Source of the DNA: Delftia acidovorans NBRC 14950
Lineage (GTDB): Bacteria; Pseudomonadota; Gammaproteobacteria; Burkholderiales; Burkholderiaceae_C
Assembly: GCF_001598795.1 (NCBI RefSeq)
Contig: NZ_BCZP01000019.1
Coordinates: 30,001-62,000, forward strand
Reading direction: 5' to 3'
Length of the DNA stretch: 32,000 nucleotides
Below, one piece after another: positions 1,096 to 16,816 of the stretch (positions are counted from its first letter, which is position 1; every line of letters starts with the position of its first letter). A program made the translations under genes and the position numbers. The notes under the pieces are model-generated. The model saw only the letters and a list, made by a program, of their open reading frames with translations, was not told the DNA's origin and did not search any database.

Positions 1096-1276
1096 TCCCT
1101 GGCAGCACGTCATCTGTACGCGCCATGGCTGCCACGGATTGCAGGTGGGCCTTGCGGATGGCGTCCGGCACAGCCTGCTCACGGCCTTCCTGTTCCGCGG
1201 TGCGCCCCTCGACATTGACGCCATCTGCCGTGACGAAGGACTCCCCAGGTCGAAGGGTGATCGCGCGGCTACGCAT
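878..1276 (-). CDS. Possible ORF in the cII-equivalent position; only the first ~60 codons look coding
   Basis: ATG at 1276 overlaps the cro stop by 8 nt. GC3 is about 70% for 1276..1100, then drops to about 44% where the frame runs antisense through 823..1095. No stop occurs before 878. Confidence 0.3.
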   Translation of the reverse strand: MRSRAITLRPGESFVTADGVNVEGRTAEQEGREQAVPDAIRKAHLQSVAAMARTDDVLPGTTDSLASLRWRQAAFVARAAPSAPREPVAPLPAPDLCPKAPRSSSIRWLLGSSAIAVLALVLARSVAPKGSA

Positions 1277-1535
1277 GGCCTTGCTCCTGGGCGGCAGGCT
1301 GCGCAAGCTCGGGCCAGATGTCCTGCCAGTCGTTGGGGCGGAGGTCACGGCGGGAGACAGTCCCACTGGACAGCGCTTCGATCCTGGGGCTAAGCGCCTT
1401 CGGAACCGGACGCCGCCTCTTGATCCACTGGTTCACAGTGGGCGGGGATACCTGTAAGGCGCGAGCCAGGGCAGCTTGGCTGCCGACAAGATCGACAACC
1501 GCCTGCACCGCAAGTCCGGGGTGTAAGTACGTCAT
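1269..1535 (-). CDS. Cro-like / YdaS-family HTH regulator (88 aa)
   Basis: GSQAALARALQVSPPTVNQWIKRRRPVP...IE..S.G.V.R.DLRP resembles YdaS/Cro (DUF1019-type) proteins. It is divergent from the CI-like repressor across the operator region. Confidence 0.85.
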   Translation of the reverse strand: MTYLHPGLAVQAVVDLVGSQAALARALQVSPPTVNQWIKRRRPVPKALSPRIEALSSGTVSRRDLRPNDWQDIWPELAQPAAQEQGHA

Positions 1536-1540
1536 ACCCC

Positions 1541-1617
1541 ATGATAAGGCTCTGCCTAATTTTGATCAATAGGCATTGCCTACGCACACTCACACATGGA
1601 ACATTAGGCAATGCTTA
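1541..1617. promoter_or_regulatory. OR-like region: three operators plus divergent promoters
   Basis: Operators are TAAGGCTCTGCCTAA 1545-1559, the perfect 13-bp palindrome TAGGCATTGCCTA 1570-1582, and TAGGCAATGCTTA 1605-1617. On the minus strand, -35 TTGATC (1569..1564) and -10 TATCAT (1546..1541) face cro. The third operator covers the repressor ATG. Confidence 0.75.
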
Positions 1618-2333
1618 CTGGTGAAAAATTAGGCCAAGCCATCGCTGAAGCCATCGAACTGAAGGGCGTCTCCAAGAAGGAGGTGGCCGAGCACTTTGAG
1701 GTAAGGCCTCCGTCCATCCAAGACTGGGTGAATCGTGGAACCATCAGCAAGGACAAGCTCCCAAAACTCTGGAGCTACTTCGCAGACGTAGTCCAGCCAG
1801 CGCACTGGGGGCTGCCCGATTACCCGCCAGGGACTACCGCCGAGACATCCAAGCAAGGGGAGAACGTGATCCAGGTCATCGATGACACCCCGCCGCCCGG
1901 CTACGTACGCCTACAGCATCTCTCGGTCCGGCCGTCGATGGGTCCTGGCTCGCACATGGACGAGGCCGTGCAGATCGTCCGGCATCTCGATGTCTTGGAA
2001 AGTTGGGTCCGCAAGAAGATCGGGACCGTCAATCCCGAGCGCATCAAGATCATGACGGGCAACGGCCACAGCATGAAACCAACGATTCAAGATGAAGACC
2101 TGGTGTTTGTGGATATGGGGCAGAGGACCATTGACGCACAGGGTATTTACGTCATCGATGTTTACAACCGCCTCTTGTTGAAGAAAGCACTAATACTGTC
2201 TGACGGCACACTGGTCCTTCGCAGCGACAACATCGTGGACTATCCCGACGAAGAGCGAATTGATCTTCGCAAGGCATCTGAGTGCATCAACATTGCCGGC
2301 AAGGTGTTGGCGTGGTGGACTATGAAGCATTGA
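1611..2333 (+). CDS. CI-like prophage repressor, XRE-type HTH plus S24 (LexA-like) peptidase domain (240 aa)
   Basis: N-terminal HTH (GVSKKEVAEHFEVRPPSIQDWVNRG). C-terminal S24 motifs GNGHSMKPT (Ser) and LLLKKA (Lys). Divergent from the cro-like gene. Confidence 0.9.
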   Translation: MLTGEKLGQAIAEAIELKGVSKKEVAEHFEVRPPSIQDWVNRGTISKDKLPKLWSYFADVVQPAHWGLPDYPPGTTAETSKQGENVIQVIDDTPPPGYVRLQHLSVRPSMGPGSHMDEAVQIVRHLDVLESWVRKKIGTVNPERIKIMTGNGHSMKPTIQDEDLVFVDMGQRTIDAQGIYVIDVYNRLLLKKALILSDGTLVLRSDNIVDYPDEERIDLRKASECINIAGKVLAWWTMKH

Positions 2334-2358: not shown

Positions 2359-2383
2359 GAGCCCGCCATGAGCGGGCTTTTTC
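2359..2383 (+). terminator. Intrinsic terminator after the repressor gene
   Basis: GCCCGC-CATGA-GCGGGC followed by TTTTT. Confidence 0.7.
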
Positions 2384-2793: not shown

Positions 2794-2857
2794 AAGGCAG
2801 CGCATAGAAATTAATAAGGCAACGCCTATTGCAGAAAATTAGGCATCGCCTTATCAT
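2794..2857 (+). promoter_or_regulatory. OL/PL-like module: operators plus rightward promoter
   Basis: Operators are TAAGGCAACGCCTAT 2815-2829, TAGGCATCGCCTTA 2840-2853, and a weaker AAGGCAGCGCATA 2794-2806. Promoter: -35 TTGCAG 2829-2834, 17-bp spacer, -10 TATCAT 2852-2857. The 42 nt at 2816-2857 match the reverse complement of 1541-1582 at 35/42 positions. Confidence 0.75.
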
Positions 2858-2863
2858 CGCCTT

Positions 2864-3304
2864 CAACGTACCTAGCCACCGCACATGCGGACCGGCCGGG
2901 AAGTTGGGCACCACGGCATCGACCGAGCAAGCCCCGGTCTTTCACAAGTCGCACGCCGATGTTGCTTGCCCCACCCGAGGGGCATTCGTCCGGCGAAATG
3001 GCGCTCCTGGGCATGGGCCAGGTCAGCGCGCCGCGTCTCCGCGCGGTTGCCAGTCCGTCAAAGCACGGTTCACGGCATAGGGAAGGAACTGCGGGCGGGA
3101 TGCCCTGTAGAGAGTAGGCGGGAGGCTGTGAAGGGTGCGCGCCAGCGCATTTGGAGCCGACGATGGAACACCGCCCTGGCATGCCGGTGACGAACGCAGT
3201 GAGATGACACCACGGAGCAAATAAACGGTGCGGCATGTTGATGCCGCGCAGCTGCTACCAGATGCAGCACGCCCTCCCCGAGCGCATCGGGGCGAAACAA
3301 AAGA
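2864..3304 (+). other. ORF-poor, hairpin-rich leader / candidate non-coding RNA downstream of PL
   Basis: No frame on either strand gives a protein-like translation or an SD-preceded start. Several 5-7 bp hairpins are present (e.g. GCGGCAT-GTTG-ATGCCGC, CCCCGA-GCGCA-TCGGGG). The region ends at an intrinsic terminator. Confidence 0.35.
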
Positions 3305-3335
3305 GGCTTCTCGATGCGGGAGGCCTTTTCTGTTT
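3305..3335 (+). terminator. Intrinsic terminator (tL1-like)
   Basis: GGCUUCUC-GAUGC-GGGAGGCC (8 bp including 2 G-U pairs) followed by UUUUCUGUUU. Confidence 0.6.
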
Positions 3336-3361: not shown

Positions 3362-3727
3362 GTGAACCATTCCAATTCCCTCGCTCATCTCGGCAGCGGC
3401 CCCACCGTGCTGCAGCGTGCCGCCGAATCGGTTGCCCGTGGCGCAGCATATGAAAGCGCCCAAATTGCCCCGGCCCCGCAGAGCCAAGTCGAAGCCGCGC
3501 TCAGCAACATCGATGCAGGCATGGAGGACTTGCAGAACACCATCAGGCGCATTTCCGGCCGGTTGGAGCCTGTGCTGTCGGCGGCCGGCGTCTCTGCCGA
3601 GGGCAGTGCGCACGAAGCCGAGCCTGCATCCCCCACTCCTCTGGTGCGCCGACTCAACGAGCTCGCCACTCAGTTGCGAAAGGACCGCGCAGCCCTGCAG
3701 GACCTGGAGCGGCGCCTCGCGCTGTGA
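3362..3727 (+). CDS. Hypothetical protein (121 aa), C-terminal coiled-coil-like
   Basis: In-frame GTG 3362 preceded by AGGAGAG (3349-3355), within ORF 3314..3727. Confidence 0.6.
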   Translation: MNHSNSLAHLGSGPTVLQRAAESVARGAAYESAQIAPAPQSQVEAALSNIDAGMEDLQNTIRRISGRLEPVLSAAGVSAEGSAHEAEPASPTPLVRRLNELATQLRKDRAALQDLERRLAL

Positions 3728-3751
3728 GTTTCGGCCTCGGCGCGGAGCCGG

Positions 3752-3910
3752 GGCCATCACAGATAGGGAATGCGCGGGCGACGCGCGGGGAATGGAAGCA
3801 ACCGGAGCGACAGACTTCCTAGGCCGTACCCGCGAGGGCCATGCGGCTGCCATGAAAAACAGCGCTCGCTTCTGTGCCGGGATCGCGTCCGGCACCTATC
3901 TGTGATGGCC
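3752..3910. repeat. Perfect 16-bp inverted repeat bracketing 127 nt
   Basis: GGCCATCACAGATAGG at 3752-3767 and its exact reverse complement CCTATCTGTGATGGCC at 3895-3910. Confidence 0.9.
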
Positions 3911-4059
3911 AATCGTGACAGGCATTTGCCCGCCTGCAAGCAGTGAGAGTCTTGCCACCGTCGAGTTGAGAATAAGCCCGGGCGAACAGGCCTGGCCATC
4001 TTCATTTCCGGCTGCGATACGATGCCCGCCATACCAATCACAACAAGAGAGGGCATTCA

Positions 4060-4356
4060 ATGCTGAGACTCATTATTTACGTGCTGCTCGCGGCGGCCGC
4101 CTGGAAGGCATACACGACGTATCAGGCCAAGACCGGAGGGCCGGTCCCGGCTCTGCTTCTCAATGAGCCTCGCCCTCGCGACATCGATGTCGGCAGCACC
4201 ACTTCAAGCGCTCCTAAATACACCTGTGACGGTCGCACGCACTGCTCGCAGATGACCTCGTGCGAAGAGGCGAAGTTCTTCCTGCGCAACTGCCCCAACA
4301 CCAAGATGGATGGAGATGGAGATGGCATTCCGTGCGAGCGTCAGCTCTGCAACTGA
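4060..4356 (+). CDS. Membrane-anchored Excalibur (calcium-binding) domain protein (98 aa)
   Basis: N-terminal TM helix (LIIYVLLAAAAW). C-terminus CSQMTSCEEAKFFLRNCPNTKMDGDGDGIPCE matches the Excalibur DxDxDGxxCE signature. Confidence 0.75.
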   Translation: MLRLIIYVLLAAAAWKAYTTYQAKTGGPVPALLLNEPRPRDIDVGSTTSSAPKYTCDGRTHCSQMTSCEEAKFFLRNCPNTKMDGDGDGIPCERQLCN

Positions 4357-4504
4357 TCCCTACCTCCTTTTACCTCCTGTTCATGTTCCGCTGAATATGA
4401 GCAAGGCATACTGACCTCAACAGTTTCGCGCCGAGCCTGGGCTTCCTCCTCCCTCCCTCTCAACTTCCCAGGCACGCCTTTCAAGGCATCGGCACTTTCC
4501 AGCC

Positions 4505-4540
4505 AGGCCCTGCAGCTTCACCAGTTGCAGGGCCTTTTTG
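4505..4540 (+). terminator. Intrinsic terminator
   Basis: AGGCCCTGCA / TGCAGGGCCT 10-bp stem followed by TTTTT. Confidence 0.75.
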
Positions 4541-4567
4541 TTTCGTGGGGCCGCTCTCGCGGCATTG

Positions 4568-4603
4568 GCCCGCCCTGCAGCAATGTGGGGCGGGCACTTT
4601 TTT
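4568..4603 (+). terminator. Second, tandem intrinsic terminator
   Basis: GCCCGCCC / GGGCGGGC 8-bp stem, 12-nt loop, then ACTTTTTT. It ends 10 nt before the next ATG. Confidence 0.65.
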
Positions 4604-4613
4604 GGAATCCACC

Positions 4614-4811
4614 ATGAGAACCAGATTCACCCGTCTGCGCGGCGAACGCAATGCCGCCGCCTATGAGCCGCGCTCTCTTGCCGAATGGAAAGAAGAAGAG
4701 CGCCTGTTGGCAGAGGCTGCAGCCCAGCGCCGACAGCAGCAAGCCACCAACCCCACGAACCCGCCGCCCGGCGGGTTTGCTGTTCCTGGAGTGCCCAAAT
4801 GCAACGAGTGA
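4614..4811 (+). CDS. Hypothetical small protein (65 aa), Arg-rich N-terminus
   Basis: Internal ATG of ORF 4545..4811 (MRTRFTRLRGERN...). Weak RBS. Confidence 0.45.
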   Translation: MRTRFTRLRGERNAAAYEPRSLAEWKEEERLLAEAAAQRRQQQATNPTNPPPGGFAVPGVPKCNE

Positions 4812-5110
4812 TCCCCTCCGAGCCCTTCAATCCCGATCCCGATGCGCGCTTTCTGCGCCAAGCGTCTCGCCCTGGTCCTGTAGTCGAGCCGGGCCCGGCG
4901 CCCCCGCCCGGCGGCTGGCTGCTCCTGTGCCTGGTCCTGCTTGTGGCTCTGGCGCTCAGCGCGTGCGCAGATGCCGGCGCGGCTCAGGAGCCGGTGGCCA
5001 GCGCAGCGGACGTGCAGCGCGCGCACAGCGCCGCCCAGGCCTGTCCGCCCGGCCATGCCGTGGTCTGGAACGGGCCGCAATCCATGGAATGCCTGCGCGA
5101 GCTGCCATGA
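4799..5110 (+). CDS. Putative lipoprotein / membrane-anchored protein (103 aa)
   Basis: Internal ATG of ORF 4685..5110. Hydrophobic stretch ends in the lipobox-like LALSAC. The n-region before the signal is unusually long. Confidence 0.5.
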   Translation: MQRVIPSEPFNPDPDARFLRQASRPGPVVEPGPAPPPGGWLLLCLVLLVALALSACADAGAAQEPVASAADVQRAHSAAQACPPGHAVVWNGPQSMECLRELP

Positions 5111-5832: not shown

Positions 5833-5858
5833 GCCCACCACCTGGTGGGCATTTTTTT
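5833..5858 (+). terminator. Intrinsic terminator
   Basis: GCCCACC-ACCT-GGTGGGC followed by A and seven T. Confidence 0.75.
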
Positions 5859-7671: not shown

Positions 7672-7956
7672 ATGTCCGAATACCAGAACCTGCTGGCCCG
7701 CAAGGCCGAACTCGACGCCCAGATCGCAGCTGCTCAGGCTGAAGCCAAGGCGAAGGCTGTAACCGAAGCCCGCGCGCTGATCCAGGAGCACGGCCTGACC
7801 GCTGCCGATGTCTTCCCAGCCGCGAAGGCCAAGGGCAGCGTGGGCGCCCCGAAGTACCGAGACCCCGCCACCGGGGCGACCTGGACCGGCCGGGGCAAGC
7901 CGCCGAACTGGATCAACGGCAAGGACCGCGCGCCCTTCCAGATCAAGCCCGCCTGA
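7672..7956 (+). CDS. Phage-encoded H-NS-family nucleoid-associated protein (94 aa)
   Basis: N-terminal coiled coil. The C-terminal YRDPATGATWTGRGKPPNW matches the H-NS DNA-binding motif (TWTG[QR]GR.P.W). RBS AAGGAAA. Confidence 0.85.
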   Translation: MSEYQNLLARKAELDAQIAAAQAEAKAKAVTEARALIQEHGLTAADVFPAAKAKGSVGAPKYRDPATGATWTGRGKPPNWINGKDRAPFQIKPA

Positions 7957-8358: not shown

Positions 8359-9402
8359 ATGAACATCATCGAATTCGGCGACTGCCGAGACACCATGCGC
8401 GCCTGGGCGGCCCAGGGCGTCCGAGCCCAGATGTGCGTCACGTCGCCGCCCTACTTCGGCCTGCGCGACTACGGGCACGCCGGCCAGTTGGGTCTGGAGC
8501 AGACGCCAGATCAGTACATCGCGGCCATGGTCGAGGTGTTCCGCTGTGTGCGCGACGTGCTGGCCGACGATGGCACGCTGTGGCTCAACATCGGGGACAG
8601 CTATGCCAGCAAGCCGAACGGGCCGGCGGGCATTCCAAAGGCCGACAGCGTTGCTCCACACGTTGCCTCCCGGACAGCGCACGCCCGCCGATCCAGCCAG
8701 GTGCCGCCTGGGCTGAAGCACAAGGACCTCATCGGCATCCCCTGGATGCTGGCGTTCGCGCTGCGGGCCGACGGCTGGTATCTGCGCCAGGACATCATCT
8801 GGCACAAGCCGAACCCGATGCCGGAGAGCGTTGGGGACCGCTGCACTAAGGCGCATGAGTACCTGTTCCTGTTGTCCAAGGGCCCGCGCTACTTCTTCGA
8901 CAGCGGTGCCATGCAAGAGCCTGCCGCCGGCGTGAACAACTACCCACCCATGGGCGGCCCCGTGCCAGGTGCGCCACCACAGGGAAGGCTCAGGCCCAGC
9001 GTGAAGCGCGGCGGGTTCGCTGGCAAGACCAACGCCATGCCGGGCCGCGAGGCCTTCCGCGCGACCAGCCCAACGCGCAACAGGCGCAGCGTCTGGACCG
9101 TGGCCACCCGGCCATACAAAGGCGCCCACTTCGCCACTTTCCCGCCCGCGCTCATCGAGCCCTGCATTCGCGCTGGATCTCGAGCAGGCGACATCGTGCT
9201 GGACCCGTTCATGGGCAGCGGCACGACAGCGGCCGTCGCGCTACAGCACGGCCGCCAGTACCTGGGCTGCGAGCTCAACCCCGACTACGAGCCCCTGCAG
9301 CGCGAGCGCATTGAGGCCTCTGCCGCTCCGCCCACGGCCAGGCCCCGACGCCGCGCCGCACGACCACCCGAACCAGAGCCCGCACAACGCGGGCTTTTTT
9401 GA
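8359..9402 (+). CDS. Orphan beta-class DNA methyltransferase (N6_N4_Mtase family; SPPY motif IV) (347 aa)
   Basis: Motif IV CVTSPPYF comes before motif I LDPFMGSGTT (beta-class order). No adjacent endonuclease-sized ORF. Confidence 0.85.
   Translation: MNIIEFGDCRDTMRAWAAQGVRAQMCVTSPPYFGLRDYGHAGQLGLEQTPDQYIAAMVEVFRCVRDVLADDGTLWLNIGDSYASKPNGPAGIPKADSVAPHVASRTAHARRSSQVPPGLKHKDLIGIPWMLAFALRADGWYLRQDIIWHKPNPMPESVGDRCTKAHEYLFLLSKGPRYFFDSGAMQEPAAGVNNYPPMGGPVPGAPPQGRLRPSVKRGGFAGKTNAMPGREAFRATSPTRNRRSVWTVATRPYKGAHFATFPPALIEPCIRAGSRAGDIVLDPFMGSGTTAAVALQHGRQYLGCELNPDYEPLQRERIEASAAPPTARPRRRAARPPEPEPAQRGLF
9377..9400 (+). terminator. Intrinsic terminator embedded in the last codons of the MTase gene
   Basis: AGCCCGC-ACAAC-GCGGGCT followed by a T-run. 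The TGA stop (9400-9402) starts in the T-tract. Confidence 0.7.
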
Positions 9403-14939: not shown

Positions 14940-15188
14940 ATGAAACACACAGTTACAGAACCTGGCGCCCCAGGAAATACCGTGCCATCCCAGGGCGCGG
15001 ATTGGGTGCTTGCCACGAAATACAAGGAAATGACTGGCATCACGCCCATGACCATCCATAACCGCCGTCGCGCCGGCATTTGGCTGGATGGCACGCACTG
15101 CGGCGTCGTGGGCAGACACCTCTATGTAAACGTAAAGGAAGCAGATCAGTGGATAAAAAACCAGCTCCATCAACTCCGGCGGGCGTGA
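14940..15188 (+). CDS. xis: Excisionase-like protein (82 aa)
   Basis: GGTGGA RBS lies 5 nt before the ATG. WVLATKYKEMTGITPMTIHNRRRAGIWLDG...YVNVKEADQWI resembles lambdoid excisionase-like proteins. Sits immediately upstream of int. Confidence 0.7.
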   Translation: MKHTVTEPGAPGNTVPSQGADWVLATKYKEMTGITPMTIHNRRRAGIWLDGTHCGVVGRHLYVNVKEADQWIKNQLHQLRRA

Positions 15189-16324
15189 CAGTCCGGGAAA
15201 TGGCCACGGGCGCTCGAATTCAGATCGCGTTCTCGTGGCACGGGCAGCAATGCCGGGAGCTCCTGCCTCCTGGGCCGGTCAACAAGGGCAGCATCCAGTA
15301 CGCAGCGAACCTGCGCGCTGAGATTCGGCGCAAGATCACAGATGGCACGTTTGTGTACGCTGAATACTTCCCGGCCAGCGCGAAGGCCCGAGCGCCAGAT
15401 CCGCTTTCCTGCCTGATGGAAGAGATGTTGGTGAAGCAATTGGAGCTGTACCGCAGGCAGGTCGAGAACGAGAAGATGTCGCCGGCCACATTCCGTGGCT
15501 ACGAAAAAAGCATCAGCGGGGAGCGCATGCGGCGATGGCATGGCCTCAAGCTCCATGAAGTCACGCCTTCCGCCCTCCGGGAGTGGATCAGCGGGATGGA
15601 ATGCACCAGCAAGGCTATCCGCAATATGCTGATTCCATTGCGCAGCGTGTTTGAAGATGCGCTGAACGACGGACTCATCGAGTTCAATCCCTTCGACCGG
15701 CTCGCGCTCACCAAGCTCATCCGCCAGACCAGCCGGGCCAGCGACTATGTGATCCAGCCCTTCACTCAGGCGGAGCGGGAGCAGATCCTGCTGGCGTGCA
15801 GAGACGATGAGCGGCCGATGGTTCAGTTCTGGTTCAACACGGGTCTGAGGCCGGGCGAACTGCAGGCCCTCGAATGGAGACACATAGACTGGGAGAAGGC
15901 AACGGCCCGGATCGAGCAAAACCAGGTCGTGGGTGTGCTCAAGGCACCAAAGACGGCCGCAGGCATCCGCAGCGTGGACCTGAACTTCGAGGCCATGGAG
16001 GCCCTGCGAACACAGAAGGCCTACAGCATGCTCCGCGGCGCACGGGTTTGGCTCAACCCTCGGACGCTCGAGCCGTGGACAACTGATGCCCAGGTGCGCA
16101 AGACCGCATGGATGCCCATCATGCAGCGTTCCGGCATCTCATACCGGAACCCCTATCAGGTGCGGCATACCTACGCTTCTTCGATCCTGACCGCCGGCGC
16201 CAACCCGTGGTATGTCGCCCAGCAACTGGGCCACGAAGATGTGGAGATGGTCTTTCGCACCTACGGGAAGTTCATCCGCGAGGACTACCAGAAGCCCCGG
16301 GCCACGCTCCAAGCGGTGAACTGA
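15185..16324 (+). CDS. int: Lambda-type tyrosine integrase with N-terminal arm-binding domain
   Basis: IQIAFSWHGQQCRELL...YAANLRAEIRRKITDGTFVYAEYFPAS resembles the arm-binding DUF3596-like domain. C-terminal RHTYAS...LGH...TY catalytic motifs. GTG 15185 overlaps the xis stop; alternative ATG at 15200. Confidence 0.9.
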   Translation: MTVREMATGARIQIAFSWHGQQCRELLPPGPVNKGSIQYAANLRAEIRRKITDGTFVYAEYFPASAKARAPDPLSCLMEEMLVKQLELYRRQVENEKMSPATFRGYEKSISGERMRRWHGLKLHEVTPSALREWISGMECTSKAIRNMLIPLRSVFEDALNDGLIEFNPFDRLALTKLIRQTSRASDYVIQPFTQAEREQILLACRDDERPMVQFWFNTGLRPGELQALEWRHIDWEKATARIEQNQVVGVLKAPKTAAGIRSVDLNFEAMEALRTQKAYSMLRGARVWLNPRTLEPWTTDAQVRKTAWMPIMQRSGISYRNPYQVRHTYASSILTAGANPWYVAQQLGHEDVEMVFRTYGKFIREDYQKPRATLQAVN

Positions 16325-16437: not shown

Positions 16438-16816
16438 TGGTGGAGCTGGCGGGAATTGAACCCGCGTCCGCAAGCCTTCGCCGGGCAGATCTACATGTTT
16501 AGCGTTCTGTTTTGAGTCTCGCCTCCCAAGTCGCGCAGGCGCACGCTACCCGGGATGCCAGCTTCCTTGGATCTTGCCACGTACTAAGAAGCCCAGCACG
16601 CAGCCAGCTGATGTAAATTCCCTTGCAGCCGGGAGGTATTGCTACCCCCTTGCCCAGCCCATCAGCGTGCTGTTGCAAGGCTCACCGGATTTAAGCGGCG
16701 AGTGCGAAACGTTCGTCGTTTGCAGTTAGTTTTTTGAATGGAGATTTACGAGCGTCACTCAAGCTCGACATGCACCACACCGGTCCCGAACCCACGTCGA
16801 AACCAGGACAGCCCCA
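16438..16816 (-). ncRNA. ssrA: tmRNA (SsrA), tag peptide ANDERFALAA
   Basis: Minus-strand 5' end is GGGGCTGTCCTGGTTTCGACGTGGG. The 3' end is GCGGGTTCAATTCCCGCCAGCTCCACCA. The tag reading frame GCA AAC GAC GAA CGT TTC GCA CTC GCC GCT TAA is at 16723..16691. Confidence 0.95.

Follow-up and report, generated by a model that had tools for sequence, protein, structure and literature searches.

A boxA-headed, structured leader RNA behind the early promoter of a Delftia prophage

The early region of the prophage

We analyzed a 32,000-nt stretch of Delftia acidovorans NBRC 14950 (assembly GCF_001598795.1, contig NZ_BCZP01000019.1, positions 30,001 to 62,000 of the forward strand; hereafter, the window). 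The window carries, in order, a cro-like gene, an S24 (cI-like) repressor gene, an operator-flanked promoter, a segment of about 470 nt that appears empty, and an operon ending in an integrase gene next to a tmRNA gene. A preliminary description had read 2858-3335 as a hairpin-rich segment with no credible ORF that ends in a terminator just before the first gene. This observation is confirmed. The features of the region are as follows.

2815-2853 (no strand assigned): two 15-bp repressor operators, TWAGGC-N3-GCCTWA, at 2815-2829 and 2839-2853, flanking or overlapping the promoter hexamers
2829-2857 (plus strand): sigma-70-type early promoter, -35 TTGCAG (2829-2834), 17-nt spacer, -10 TATCAT (2852-2857), with an inferred start near 2864
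2921-2939 (plus strand): hairpin GACCG-N9-CGGUC abutting boxA, in the position that boxB occupies in rrn leaders
2936-2947 (plus strand): rrn-type boxA, GGUCUUUCACAA, the presumed NusB-NusE(S10) loading site
2955-3029 (plus strand): two-hairpin core, P1 enclosing P2 (2955-2994) and P3a/P3b with conserved loop GCAUGG (3001-3029), the reverse complement of the Rfam Burkholderiales-2 motif
3031-3080 (plus strand): second conserved domain, a local hairpin (3031-3046), then helix P5 (UGCC/GGCA) enclosing hairpin P6 (CCGU-CAAAGC-ACGG, 3055-3068)
3088-3200 (plus strand): helix ACUGCG/CGCAGU (3088-3093 with 3195-3200), whose loop holds the inserted module
3096-3186 (plus strand): 91-nt mimic of the 23S rRNA L1 stalk (helices 76-78)
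3208-3292 (plus strand): 3' domain of four hairpins, CACC...GGUG (3208-3230), GCGGCA-UGUUGA-UGCCGC (3230-3247), CUGC-UACCAGAU-GCAG (3252-3267) and CCCCGA-GCGCA-UCGGGG (3276-3292)
3305-3335 (plus strand): intrinsic terminator, 26 nt before the GTG of the first gene (3362)

The promoter hexamers lie where the preliminary description had placed them. The -35 matches only 3 of 6 consensus bases, so a simple promoter scan does not list it. In addition to the two operators at the promoter, three more lie between the cro-like and repressor genes, where the other sites cluster at 1545-1643. In all, we identified 8 operator matches in the window against 1.3 expected, and 0 of 100 shuffles reach 8. The promoter is therefore repressor-controlled. 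Homologous loci have a promoter-like site on this strand in 20 of 46 distinct upstream flanks, compared with 0 of 46 on the other strand and 2.2% of control windows.

The terminator at 3305-3335 reads GGCUUCUCG-AUG-CGGGAGGCC followed by UUUUCUGUUU, and its two U-G wobbles pair only on the plus strand. A terminator scan also finds the previously listed terminators at 4505-4535, 4568-4595 and 5833-5850, and a further terminator at 9377-9400 is seen directly. Terminators 3305-3335 and 4568-4603 end 26 nt and 10 nt before start codons. Read-through is therefore obligatory in this operon. The preliminary description had also placed an integrase and an excisionase at the far end and had recognized no N- or Q-like gene. 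The integrase is confirmed at 15080-16324, but the excisionase is not. Pfam and PHROG searches of 23 ORFs returned no N- or Q-like domain, and the first downstream genes are not homologous across loci. A very diverged N elsewhere is not excluded.

A conserved, covarying, non-coding RNA on the plus strand

ORFs exist in this GC-rich stretch, including an arginine-rich ORF of 101 aa at 2885-3190 that had been considered as a possible diverged N analogue. A conserved protein-coding frame across the region had been named in advance as a finding that would overturn the non-coding reading, and we did not find one. Among 20 close variants, 4 have in-frame stops and 3 are frameshifted. Variable sites fall 15/17/9 on codon positions 1/2/3 and thus show no third-position bias. 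The first part of the ORF is replaced in relatives of the type of locus L009 (L numbers designate the loci of the family), and more distant relatives differ by 1-2-nt indels in loops and by compensatory pair changes. The hidden N-like protein is rejected, and we consider it very unlikely.

An Rfam search, one of the checks proposed beforehand, showed that the leader matches two models at their gathering thresholds. The first is RF02917 (Burkholderiales-2), an orphan candidate motif classed as cis-regulatory (Weinberg et al. 2017, PMC5737381). The 74-nt model is matched over its full length (1-74) at 2955-3029, with 84.8 bits against a gathering score of 67.9, on the minus strand. The second is the L1-stalk region of 23S rRNA, considered below. 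We identified at least 64 loci of this RNA family in prophages and phages of Burkholderiales, with one copy in each of 64 loci; relatives score 78.7-100.1 bits against RF02917. The conserved RNA extends well beyond the Rfam motif, to about 210 nt of shared core plus 3' domains, or about 400 nt in the window.

The fold is strongly supported by covariation. Across 41 pairs, 95.8% are paired, against 35-40% when the partners are slid; 20 pairs change on both sides, and 0 of 500 shuffles reach the observed values. An R-scape test with a phylogeny-aware null on a larger alignment was not run. RNAalifold recovers six of the ten helices on its own. P5 and P6 covary, for example CCGC/GCGG against CCGU/ACGG, and ATCC/GGAT, TCCC/GGGA, CTCC/GGAG. 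In the 3' domain, loops are conserved and stems covary across sub-types. A pseudoknot between CCGU (after P4) and the distal ACGG was considered and dropped, because it shows only mismatches and no compensating changes. Fold energy alone is weak evidence (z = -1.5 for the plus strand).

All four hairpins listed in the preliminary description are real and conserved. The hairpin at 3007-3023 is helix P3b, which covaries, and that at 3137-3150 is the tip of the L1-stalk-like module. The hairpin at 3229-3246 has a conserved UGUUGA loop on a covarying stem (GCGGCA/UGCCGC, GCUGAA/UUCAGC, GCUGCA/UGCAGC), and that at 3275-3292 has a conserved GCGCA loop on varying stems.

The orientation of the Rfam model raises the possibility that the functional RNA lies on the minus strand, as an antisense or cis-regulatory RNA running towards the promoter. 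The RF02917 consensus includes a conserved G-U pair that exists only in that orientation; the orientation of its seed sequences relative to flanking genes was not examined. Against this reading, the plus strand carries boxA, the promoters, U-tract terminators, ribosome-binding sites with start codons, and the LSU and tRNA model hits. G-U against A-C counts are 74 to 29 overall, and within the Rfam part plus-strand G-U pairs outnumber minus-strand ones 17 to 3. An invariant U-G extends P1 on the plus strand, and the minimum free energy is -185.8 kcal/mol on the plus strand against -168.9 on the minus strand. In the minus orientation, nothing lies downstream except the promoter and a convergent ORF. 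The minus-strand reading is rejected as highly improbable.

The rrn-type boxA and variable leader modules

The element at 2936-2947 is the only match to the family's boxA pattern on either strand of the window. Among 43 distinct upstream flanks, 32 match GCTCTTTAACAA with at most 3 mismatches, ending 6-9 nt before P1, compared with about 1% of control windows. A degenerate pattern gives 36 of 42 flanks against 6 of 585 controls. Overall, boxA lies 6-11 nt upstream of the fold in 35 of 43 flank types. The 8 apparent exceptions carry a perfect or near-perfect boxA 160-513 nt further upstream, separated from the fold by inserted modules. Close juxtaposition is therefore not essential. A hairpin just 5' of boxA, as in the window, is also seen in several homologues, although it was not tested statistically.

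Prophage copies from Comamonas (L030, L040, L070) read GGTCTTTAAAAA, identical to the boxA of the Comamonas rrn leader, while the Comamonas rrn spacer reads GTTCTTTAAAAA. Copies from Alcaligenaceae and Burkholderia hosts read GCTCTTTAACAA, the boxA of the E. coli rrn leader. Family copies are identical to these or differ by 1-3 bases; the window copy differs from the Comamonas leader boxA at 2 of 12 positions. The phage boxA follows the host's rrn boxA variant, a sign of adaptation to host Nus factors. Model R1 hits rrn operons only at their four boxA sites, so the core fold has no similarity to rrn leaders beyond boxA. A permissive Rfam search of L004, a representative of the majority form, found nothing beyond RF02917.

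The module at 3096-3186 matches positions 2125-2216 of the Rfam bacterial LSU model at 53.9 bits (gathering score 50) on the plus strand and keeps all three helices of the L1 stalk. It is present only in one shallow sub-lineage, where all 20 variants keep it. It is a precise insertion relative to L045, L048, L011 and L003; L045 and L048 instead have CUUGCG/CGCAAG closing a 17-nt loop. The module is not a recent copy of host 23S, as it is only 78.5% identical to real Comamonas 23S over 65 nt and its outer stem is unrelated in sequence.

The module may be a passenger with no function, a piece of host 23S rDNA captured by illegitimate recombination and now drifting. It shares Comamonas-specific states with Comamonas 23S (GAAGGGUG and GCCGACG), which points to capture from a host of that family. 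Three nucleotides strongly conserved in bacterial 23S are changed (A to G in GAUAG, A to G in UGAAA, and U to C in AUACC), and these changes are fixed in all 20 variants. By our numbering, the module differs from the bacterial consensus at conserved T-loop positions E. coli 2112, 2113, 2117, 2169 and 2172. However, the divergence keeps the fold. H77 changes from GGUGGG/CCACCC to GGCGGG/CCGCCC, the H78 tip is re-paired, and, by our numbering, the tertiary pair 2117:2172 changes from A-U to G-C; rRNA databases were not searched for natural stalks with this G-C pair. Changes among the 20 variants fall on wobble or stem positions, while the T-loop and H77 parts are invariant. The module still passes the LSU gathering score, and its exact insertion in a hairpin loop leaves the host fold intact. 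We regard the passenger reading as possible but tentative. GGGAGGC, GGAGCC and H77 are retained, although binding of ribosomal protein uL1 was not assayed.

The leaders of the family are modular. The core RNA, a second element closed by a long helix (window 3754-3908), and other inserts occur in different orders behind a single boxA. A tRNA-like fold scores 48.1 bits in L072, the only hit of the tRNA covariance model, and ARAGORN finds no tRNA genes in the second element. The L1-stalk-like module and this tRNA-like module are rare examples of translation-machinery RNA folds within phage transcripts.

A candidate antitermination leader and its relation to known systems

The RNA always lies at the 5' end of a protein-coding operon, directly behind a repressor-controlled promoter and in the same direction as the genes. 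We identified 26 loci with the S24 repressor gene upstream on the same strand. In the cultured Bordetella phage vB_BaM-IFTN2, which carries a full-length copy, the RNA lies between the repressor genes and the exonuclease VIII and RecT genes, and the deposited genome annotates a hypothetical protein across it. Strong co-directional terminators number 40 against 7 on the opposite strand in 158 kb downstream of family members; terminator numbers in lambdoid prophages of Burkholderiales with and without this RNA were not compared.

We favor, with moderate confidence, the reading that the segment is the untranslated leader of the early-left (PL-like) operon and works as a nut-like processive antitermination site built from RNA and host factors. 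In this view, loss of the S24 repressor lets RNA polymerase start near 2864, and the nascent RNA exposes boxA. BoxA would load NusB-NusE and, with NusA and NusG (possibly SuhB), form the kind of complex that the host assembles on its rRNA operons. The conserved fold that follows (2955 to about 3290) would stay with this complex as the phage-specific component, in the role of boxB plus N in lambda, boxC with S4 and SuhB in rrn, or put RNA in HK022. The modified polymerase would escape Rho on the 470-nt untranslated leader, read through the terminators at 3305, 4505, 4568, 5833 and 9377, and reach the distal genes, including integrase. In this sub-lineage, the inserted L1-stalk mimic may recruit uL1 as an extra cofactor. 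Consistent with this view, a boxA relieves Rho-dependent polarity caused by a long non-coding 5' UTR in a NusB- and NusG-dependent way (PMC4807359), and rrn complexes use Nus factors plus ribosomal proteins instead of N (PMC8632103).

Our analysis establishes that the segment is non-coding and lies on the plus strand, that boxA is conserved and matches the host rrn boxA, that the structure covaries, that the promoter is repressor-controlled, that the layout matches the lambda PL operon, and that two genes sit directly behind terminators. Nus-factor binding, antitermination, and any role of the fold or of uL1 in it are inferences, and no experiment bears on this RNA. Some findings also weigh against the favored reading. 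There is only one copy per prophage, with nothing comparable to nutR or putR on the PR side within the DNA examined. In 8 of 43 flank types, boxA and the fold are separated by 160-513 nt of inserted modules. Several loci (L016, L028, L045 and L048) have no strong terminator in 6 kb downstream, and the swappable modules look more like cargo than like parts that grip RNA polymerase.

The interpretation offered in the preliminary description is partly supported. It had proposed that processive antitermination seems required in this operon, and that the leader could be a put-like cis-acting RNA antiterminator, could be a free-standing ncRNA, or could hide a diverged N analogue. The leader is indeed non-coding and structured and heads an operon with genes directly behind strong terminators. 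But the description had missed that the leader carries a recognizable antitermination signal, the boxA, which makes the element nut-like or rrn-like and probably Nus-dependent, and it had missed the two Rfam matches.

The free-standing RNA remains a live, though more tentative, alternative. In this reading, the RNAs are the product, and boxA only protects a long, untranslated, highly structured transcript from Rho and helps it fold as it is made, as on rRNA operons. The fold and its modules would act elsewhere, for example as decoys, sponges or scaffolds for host factors such as uL1 or tRNA-binding proteins, perhaps against host defence. Terminator 3305-3335 would define the 3' end of a discrete RNA of about 470 nt, and downstream genes would be expressed by residual read-through. 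The modular leaders, the variable modules that mimic parts of the translation machinery, the 160-513 nt that can separate boxA from the fold, and the single copy per prophage fit this reading, and PMC4807359 and PMC8632103 stress the RNA-chaperone role of boxA complexes. However, the terminator after the RNA is not a constant feature, and genes placed 10-26 nt behind strong terminators still need efficient read-through. A Nus complex loaded at boxA would in any case travel on into the operon, so the two readings are not mutually exclusive.

A riboswitch-like attenuator, in which the fold senses a cellular ligand, protein or RNA (for instance free uL1 or a tRNA) and decides whether the terminator at 3305-3335 forms, appears unlikely. 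Rfam classes RF02917 as cis-regulatory, the fold lies upstream of non-homologous genes, and a terminator follows it in the window and in some relatives. L1-stalk-type double T-loops bind tRNA elbows, as in T-box leaders. But no conserved alternative pairing between the fold and the terminator was seen. A strict scan finds a terminator within about 500 nt after the core RNA in only 11 of 46 non-redundant loci, and in L083, L086, L075 and L018 the terminator is replaced by other sequence. The candidate sensor module is optional, and an attenuator would not explain boxA.

A more speculative possibility is that a large folded RNA replaces the N protein. The phage would dress the start of its early operon as a ribosomal-RNA operon, with the host's own rrn boxA followed by a dedicated fold of 200-400 nt and, in one lineage, an exapted L1-stalk mimic that recruits uL1. 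The host's rRNA transcription machinery would then assemble on phage RNA and carry the polymerase through both Rho-dependent and intrinsic terminators. If true, this would be a third kind of phage processive antitermination, beside protein-plus-nut (N, Q) and the small RNA-only put, and the first case of a ribosomal-protein-binding rRNA mimic used as a transcription cofactor site. If the antitermination mechanism holds, it shows how temperate phages outside the enterobacteria solve the terminator problem without N, by copying the host's rRNA-operon signal and adding a large RNA.

For RF02917, these results give an orphan motif a probable strand, a fivefold larger extent, a genomic setting (the nutL position of lambdoid phages of Burkholderiales, including cultured Bordetella avium phages) and a testable function. 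The boxA, the phage context and the variable modules were not found described. The main text of PMC5737381 does not mention the motif, and no paper in the library searched, which did not include that study's supplements, mentions Burkholderiales-2, an L1-stalk mimic in phage, or boxA in Burkholderia phages.

The RNA sits where lambda has nutL and N, just behind the repressor-controlled leftward promoter, downstream of cI, at the head of an operon that ends in int and is interrupted by terminators. Like nutL, it starts with a boxA, about 72 nt after the inferred start. But this boxA is the full rrn type and not the shortened lambda CGCUCUUA. Lambda has a boxB hairpin of about 15 nt with a pentaloop a few nucleotides after boxA; here, a 75-nt two-hairpin domain begins seven nucleotides after boxA, the loop of its first hairpin (P2) is not conserved, and a fold of 210-400 nt follows boxA instead. 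Lambda also has a site in each early operon, whereas we found one fold and one boxA in the window, which includes only 1.5 kb of the other operon.

As in the bacterial rrn antitermination and chaperone complex (boxB-boxA-boxC with NusA/B/E/G, SuhB and S4; PMC8632103, PMC4807359), the boxA is identical or nearly identical to the host's rrn boxA, follows a hairpin placed as boxB is in rrn leaders, and heads a long untranslated, structured transcript, which in one lineage even carries a 23S-like module. Here, however, the transcript continues into protein-coding phage genes, and the core fold has no similarity to rRNA beyond boxA. No boxC was identified, although no boxC consensus was searched for, and binding of NusB-NusE, SuhB and S4 was not measured.

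The HK022 put RNAs (PMC9378689) are likewise cis-acting RNAs close to the promoter, at the place where other lambdoid phages have nut, in phages with no recognizable N, and the core next to boxA is also a two-hairpin unit of about 75 nt. But put is about 70 nt in total, has no boxA, needs no Nus factors, and occurs twice (putL and putR), whereas the RNA described here is longer, is preceded by boxA, and occurs once per prophage. No sequence or structure similarity to put was tested or seen, nor was binding to the beta-prime zinc-binding domain examined. Finally, L1 binds both rRNA and an mRNA mimic, the L1 operator on L11-operon mRNA, through one shared structural motif (PMC2175363); the L1-stalk-like module resembles the 23S stalk in its three helices but is embedded in a phage leader RNA.

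A conserved RNA in the early leader of a lambda-like prophage

The window is a high-GC prophage with a lambda-like immunity region. Its main features are as follows (coordinates, strand where assigned, description).

1269-1535, minus strand: cro-like gene (YdaS/P22_Cro)
1611-2333, plus strand: cI-like S24 repressor gene
2361-2382, plus strand: intrinsic terminator GCCCGC-CAUGA-GCGGGC followed by UUUUU, right after the repressor gene
2483-2788: 101-aa ORF between this terminator and the early promoter, with no family match and not conserved among relatives
2829-2834 and 2852-2857: promoter hexamers TTGCAG and TATCAT
2936-2947, plus strand: boxA, GGTCTTTCACAA
2955-3029, minus strand: match to Rfam RF02917, the Burkholderiales-2 RNA
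3096-3186, plus strand: match to the L1 stalk of the bacterial LSU rRNA model
3305-3335: intrinsic terminator
3754-3908: second conserved non-coding element, inside the non-coding stretch 3728-4059
4060-4356: gene for a small secreted-looking protein with an Excalibur calcium-binding domain
4505-4603: two tandem strong terminators
7672-7956, plus strand: gene for a phage-encoded H-NS-like protein (H-NS C-terminal domain, E = 9e-13) in the early-left operon
15080-16324, plus strand: integrase gene
16438-16815, minus strand: complete tmRNA gene (194.7 bits, tag ANDERFALAA), the likely attachment site

The tmRNA gene lies next to the integrase gene, far downstream of the immunity region. The prophage is probably integrated at ssrA, and the window from about 16.4 kb onward is probably host DNA. 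The Excalibur gene and the terminator pair that follows it look like a moron (an independently acquired gene cassette) inside the early operon. The terminator pair gives a weak, sub-threshold match to the Burkholderia anti-hemB sRNA (24.2 bits against a gathering score of 49.5).

The features on which the preliminary description rested held up on inspection. The promoter hexamers are in place and are bracketed by two 15-bp operators of the form TWAGGC-N3-GCCTWA. The same operator occurs three to four times between the cro-like and cI-like genes, and there are 8 matches in the window against 1.3 expected. The promoter is therefore repressor-controlled and PL-like. The four reported leader hairpins and the terminator at 3305-3335 are all present, and the terminators at 4505, 4568, 5833 and 9377 are real and strong. 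Two terminators, 3305-3335 and 4568-4603, end 26 nt and 10 nt before start codons, which leaves no room for a promoter.

A scan of the apparently empty leader against Rfam, a check proposed beforehand, gave two matches at curated thresholds. RF02917 matches 2955-3029 on the minus strand at 84.8 bits (gathering score 67.9). Positions 2125-2216 of the bacterial LSU rRNA model, corresponding to helices 76-78 (the L1 stalk), match 3096-3186 on the plus strand at 53.9 bits (gathering score 50). No paper in the library searched mentions Burkholderiales-2, and the paper that reported the motif (PMC5737381) does not discuss it in its main text.

We identified relatives through pattern scans based on the Rfam motif. 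These scans recovered 18 viral contigs and about 35 loci in genomes of Comamonas, Delftia, Acidovorax, Ottowia, Giesbergeria, Simplicispira, Alcaligenes, Paenalcaligenes, Bordetella, Achromobacter, Kerstersia, Pigmentiphaga, Pandoraea and Burkholderia. Nine cultured Bordetella avium phages also match. In one phage, vB_BaM-IFTN2 (OM293951.1, our locus L082), a full-length copy lies between the repressor genes and the exonuclease VIII and RecT genes. The deposited annotation places a hypothetical protein (vBBaMIFTN2_48, locus 4561-4857, minus strand) on the opposite strand across the conserved RNA (locus 4497-4704, plus strand), which is probably a spurious gene call. A covariance model of the extended RNA finds exactly one copy in each of 64 loci and matches the window at 2931-3114 on the plus strand at 116.9 bits.

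The conserved unit is much larger than the Rfam motif. In most members about 210 nt are alignable, comprising, in order, boxA; helix P1 (GCCG/CGGC), enclosing hairpin P2; hairpin P3a/P3b with loop GCAUGG; helix P4, enclosing P5 and hairpin P6 (CCGC-CAAAGC-GCGG); GUGAGG and hairpin P7; CAAGAACAGAAACGGUCAC; and hairpin P8 with the invariant loop UGGAAU. On 24 diverse sequences, our ten-helix model has 41 pairs. Of the cells, 95.8% are paired, against 35-40% when the partners are slid, 20 pairs change on both sides, and 0 of 500 shuffles reach any of the observed values. RNAalifold recovers P1, P2, P3a, P3b, P7 and P8 unaided. The 3' domain of the window type also has conserved loops on covarying stems. 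A conserved coding frame had been named in advance as an observation that would overturn the RNA interpretation, but ORF 2885-3190 is not conserved as coding: 7 of 20 close variants have stops or frameshifts, and there is no third-position bias.

Strand and boxA

Every independent indicator places the RNA on the window's plus strand, the complement of the Rfam model. G-U against A-C counts in paired columns are 74 to 29 overall and 17 to 3 inside the Rfam part, and an invariant U-G pair extends P1 on the plus strand. Promoter-like sites occur in 20 of 46 distinct upstream flanks on the plus strand, 0 of 46 on the other strand, and 2.2% of controls. Ribosome-binding sites with start codons follow on the plus strand, and strong terminators downstream number 40 on the plus strand against 7 on the minus strand. 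The LSU and tRNA model hits are also on the plus strand. Finally, the minimum free energy is -185.8 kcal/mol (z = -1.5) on the plus strand against -168.9 (z = +0.15) on the minus strand.

We identified a 12-mer immediately 5' of P1 that reads GCTCTTTAACAA exactly in six flank types and GGTCTTTCACAA in the window. Of 43 distinct flanks, 32 are within 3 mismatches, ending 6-9 nt before P1, as are about 1% of control windows. GCTCTTTAACAA is the boxA of the E. coli rrn leader, which we verified in an E. coli rrn operon along with the spacer variant GCTCTTTAAAAA. The rrn operon of Comamonas odontotermitis has GGTCTTTAAAAA in its leader and GTTCTTTAAAAA in its spacer, and the prophage copies from Comamonas (loci L030, L040 and L070) read GGTCTTTAAAAA. 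The phage element therefore follows the host's variant. The eight flank types that seemed to lack boxA have a perfect or near-perfect one 160-513 nt further upstream, with other modules inserted in between. With a degenerate pattern, 36 of 42 flanks have a site against 6 of 585 controls, and the window has a single site on either strand.

Our model R1, run on rrn operons, hits only their four boxA sites. In the Comamonas rrn leader (L096:1213-1250), boxA is followed after 6 nt by GCCGAU, and the invariant P1 of the phage RNA also starts GCCGAU, 6-9 nt after boxA. The rrn spacer has GUUGCU after its boxA, as in the phage GCCGAUGUUGCU. These may be chance matches of 6 nt. Model R1 sees no similarity beyond boxA.

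Variable modules of the leader

The L1-stalk-like module is a precise insertion of about 91 nt into the loop of helix ACUGCG/CGCAGU. Relatives L045 and L048 have the covarying helix CUUGCG/CGCAAG with a 17-nt loop, relatives L011 and L003 have a short hairpin, and the majority have P7 and P8 instead. The module is found only in one shallow lineage, represented by 20 distinct variants from viral, genome and metagenome collections.

The module is not a fresh copy of host rDNA. The best natural match in the plasmid collection is Comamonas 23S, at 78.5% identity over 65 nt. The module shares Comamonas-specific states, yet its stems are re-paired: H77 changes from GGUGGG/CCACCC to GGCGGG/CCGCCC, and the H78 tip changes from GGAU/GUUC to GCGC/GCGC. 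Three nucleotides conserved in the bacterial model are changed. In our E. coli numbering, 2117:2172 goes from A-U to G-C, which would preserve a known tertiary pair of the 23S model; this step was not made with a tool. L1 recognizes one shared motif in rRNA and in mRNA (PMC2175363), although binding of uL1 to the module was not assayed. Variation among the 20 copies is confined to stems and wobble positions.

The second conserved non-coding element (3754-3908) lies in the same operon. A 14-bp helix, CCAUCACAGAUAGG/CCUAUCUGUGAUGG, closes about 130 nt of structured RNA. Nine loci have the same CCAUCA...UGAUGG frame, and the rest of the helix covaries. In relatives L013, L021, L033, L083 and L086 the element follows the first RNA directly, in L041 an element of this type lies between boxA and the first RNA, and in the window gene 3362-3727 lies between the two. 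In relative L072 (4212-4334, plus strand), the inside of the second element matches the tRNA covariance model at 48.1 bits (gathering score 29). This match has D and T arms, but the anticodon loop is replaced by a tetraloop, the variable region holds a 58-nt insertion, and the acceptor stem continues into the long closing helix. ARAGORN does not call it. It is a non-decoding tRNA-like module, a parallel to the L1-stalk mimic in the window's lineage.

In six relatives (L009, L010, L018, L022, L046 and L035), the 480-510 nt between boxA and the core RNA hold an inserted cassette with a small ORF on the opposite strand. This ORF encodes a hydrophobic product of about 30 aa (for example, MKTSVRVSIKIDVAKCLQAIGYIVLLLML), its substitutions look codon-like, and it is flanked by a GACCCGUGGCCACGGGUC hairpin. 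It resembles a type I toxin gene that the boxA-headed transcript would cross in antisense.

This modular make-up, with the core RNA, a second long-helix element, and L1-like and tRNA-like modules in variable order behind a single boxA, supports a reading in which boxA only protects and helps fold RNA products that act elsewhere. The single copy per prophage supports it too. We regard this reading as possible, and as the main rival to the one that follows.

Proposed function and relation to known antitermination systems

The best-supported reading is a nut-like site, which we consider about as likely as not. In this view, boxA loads NusB-NusE and the other Nus factors, as on rRNA operons (PMC8632103). 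That complex relieves Rho-dependent polarity on long untranslated leaders (PMC4807359). The conserved fold would be the phage-specific part that makes the complex robust against the intrinsic terminators, which must be read through to express genes lying 10-26 nt behind them. This reading and its rival can both be true.

The 74-nt motif is already in Rfam as an orphan. We found no description of its strand, of the boxA and the way it follows the host rrn boxA, of the full extent and modularity of the RNA, of its nutL-equivalent position in lambdoid phages of Burkholderiales, or of the L1-stalk mimic.

Genomic position relates the element to lambda. In 26 loci the S24 repressor gene lies upstream on the same strand, while the genes downstream are not homologous. 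The order is repressor, operator-flanked promoter, boxA plus RNA, then recombination genes through to integrase. That is the layout of lambda's PL operon, with this RNA where lambda has nutL and N. No N- or Q-like domain was found in the searches made here. The interpretation offered in the preliminary description is supported in part: its general idea of an RNA-based antitermination leader is supported, but its comparison to the put RNA of HK022 does not fit, because put has no boxA and is Nus-independent (PMC9378689).
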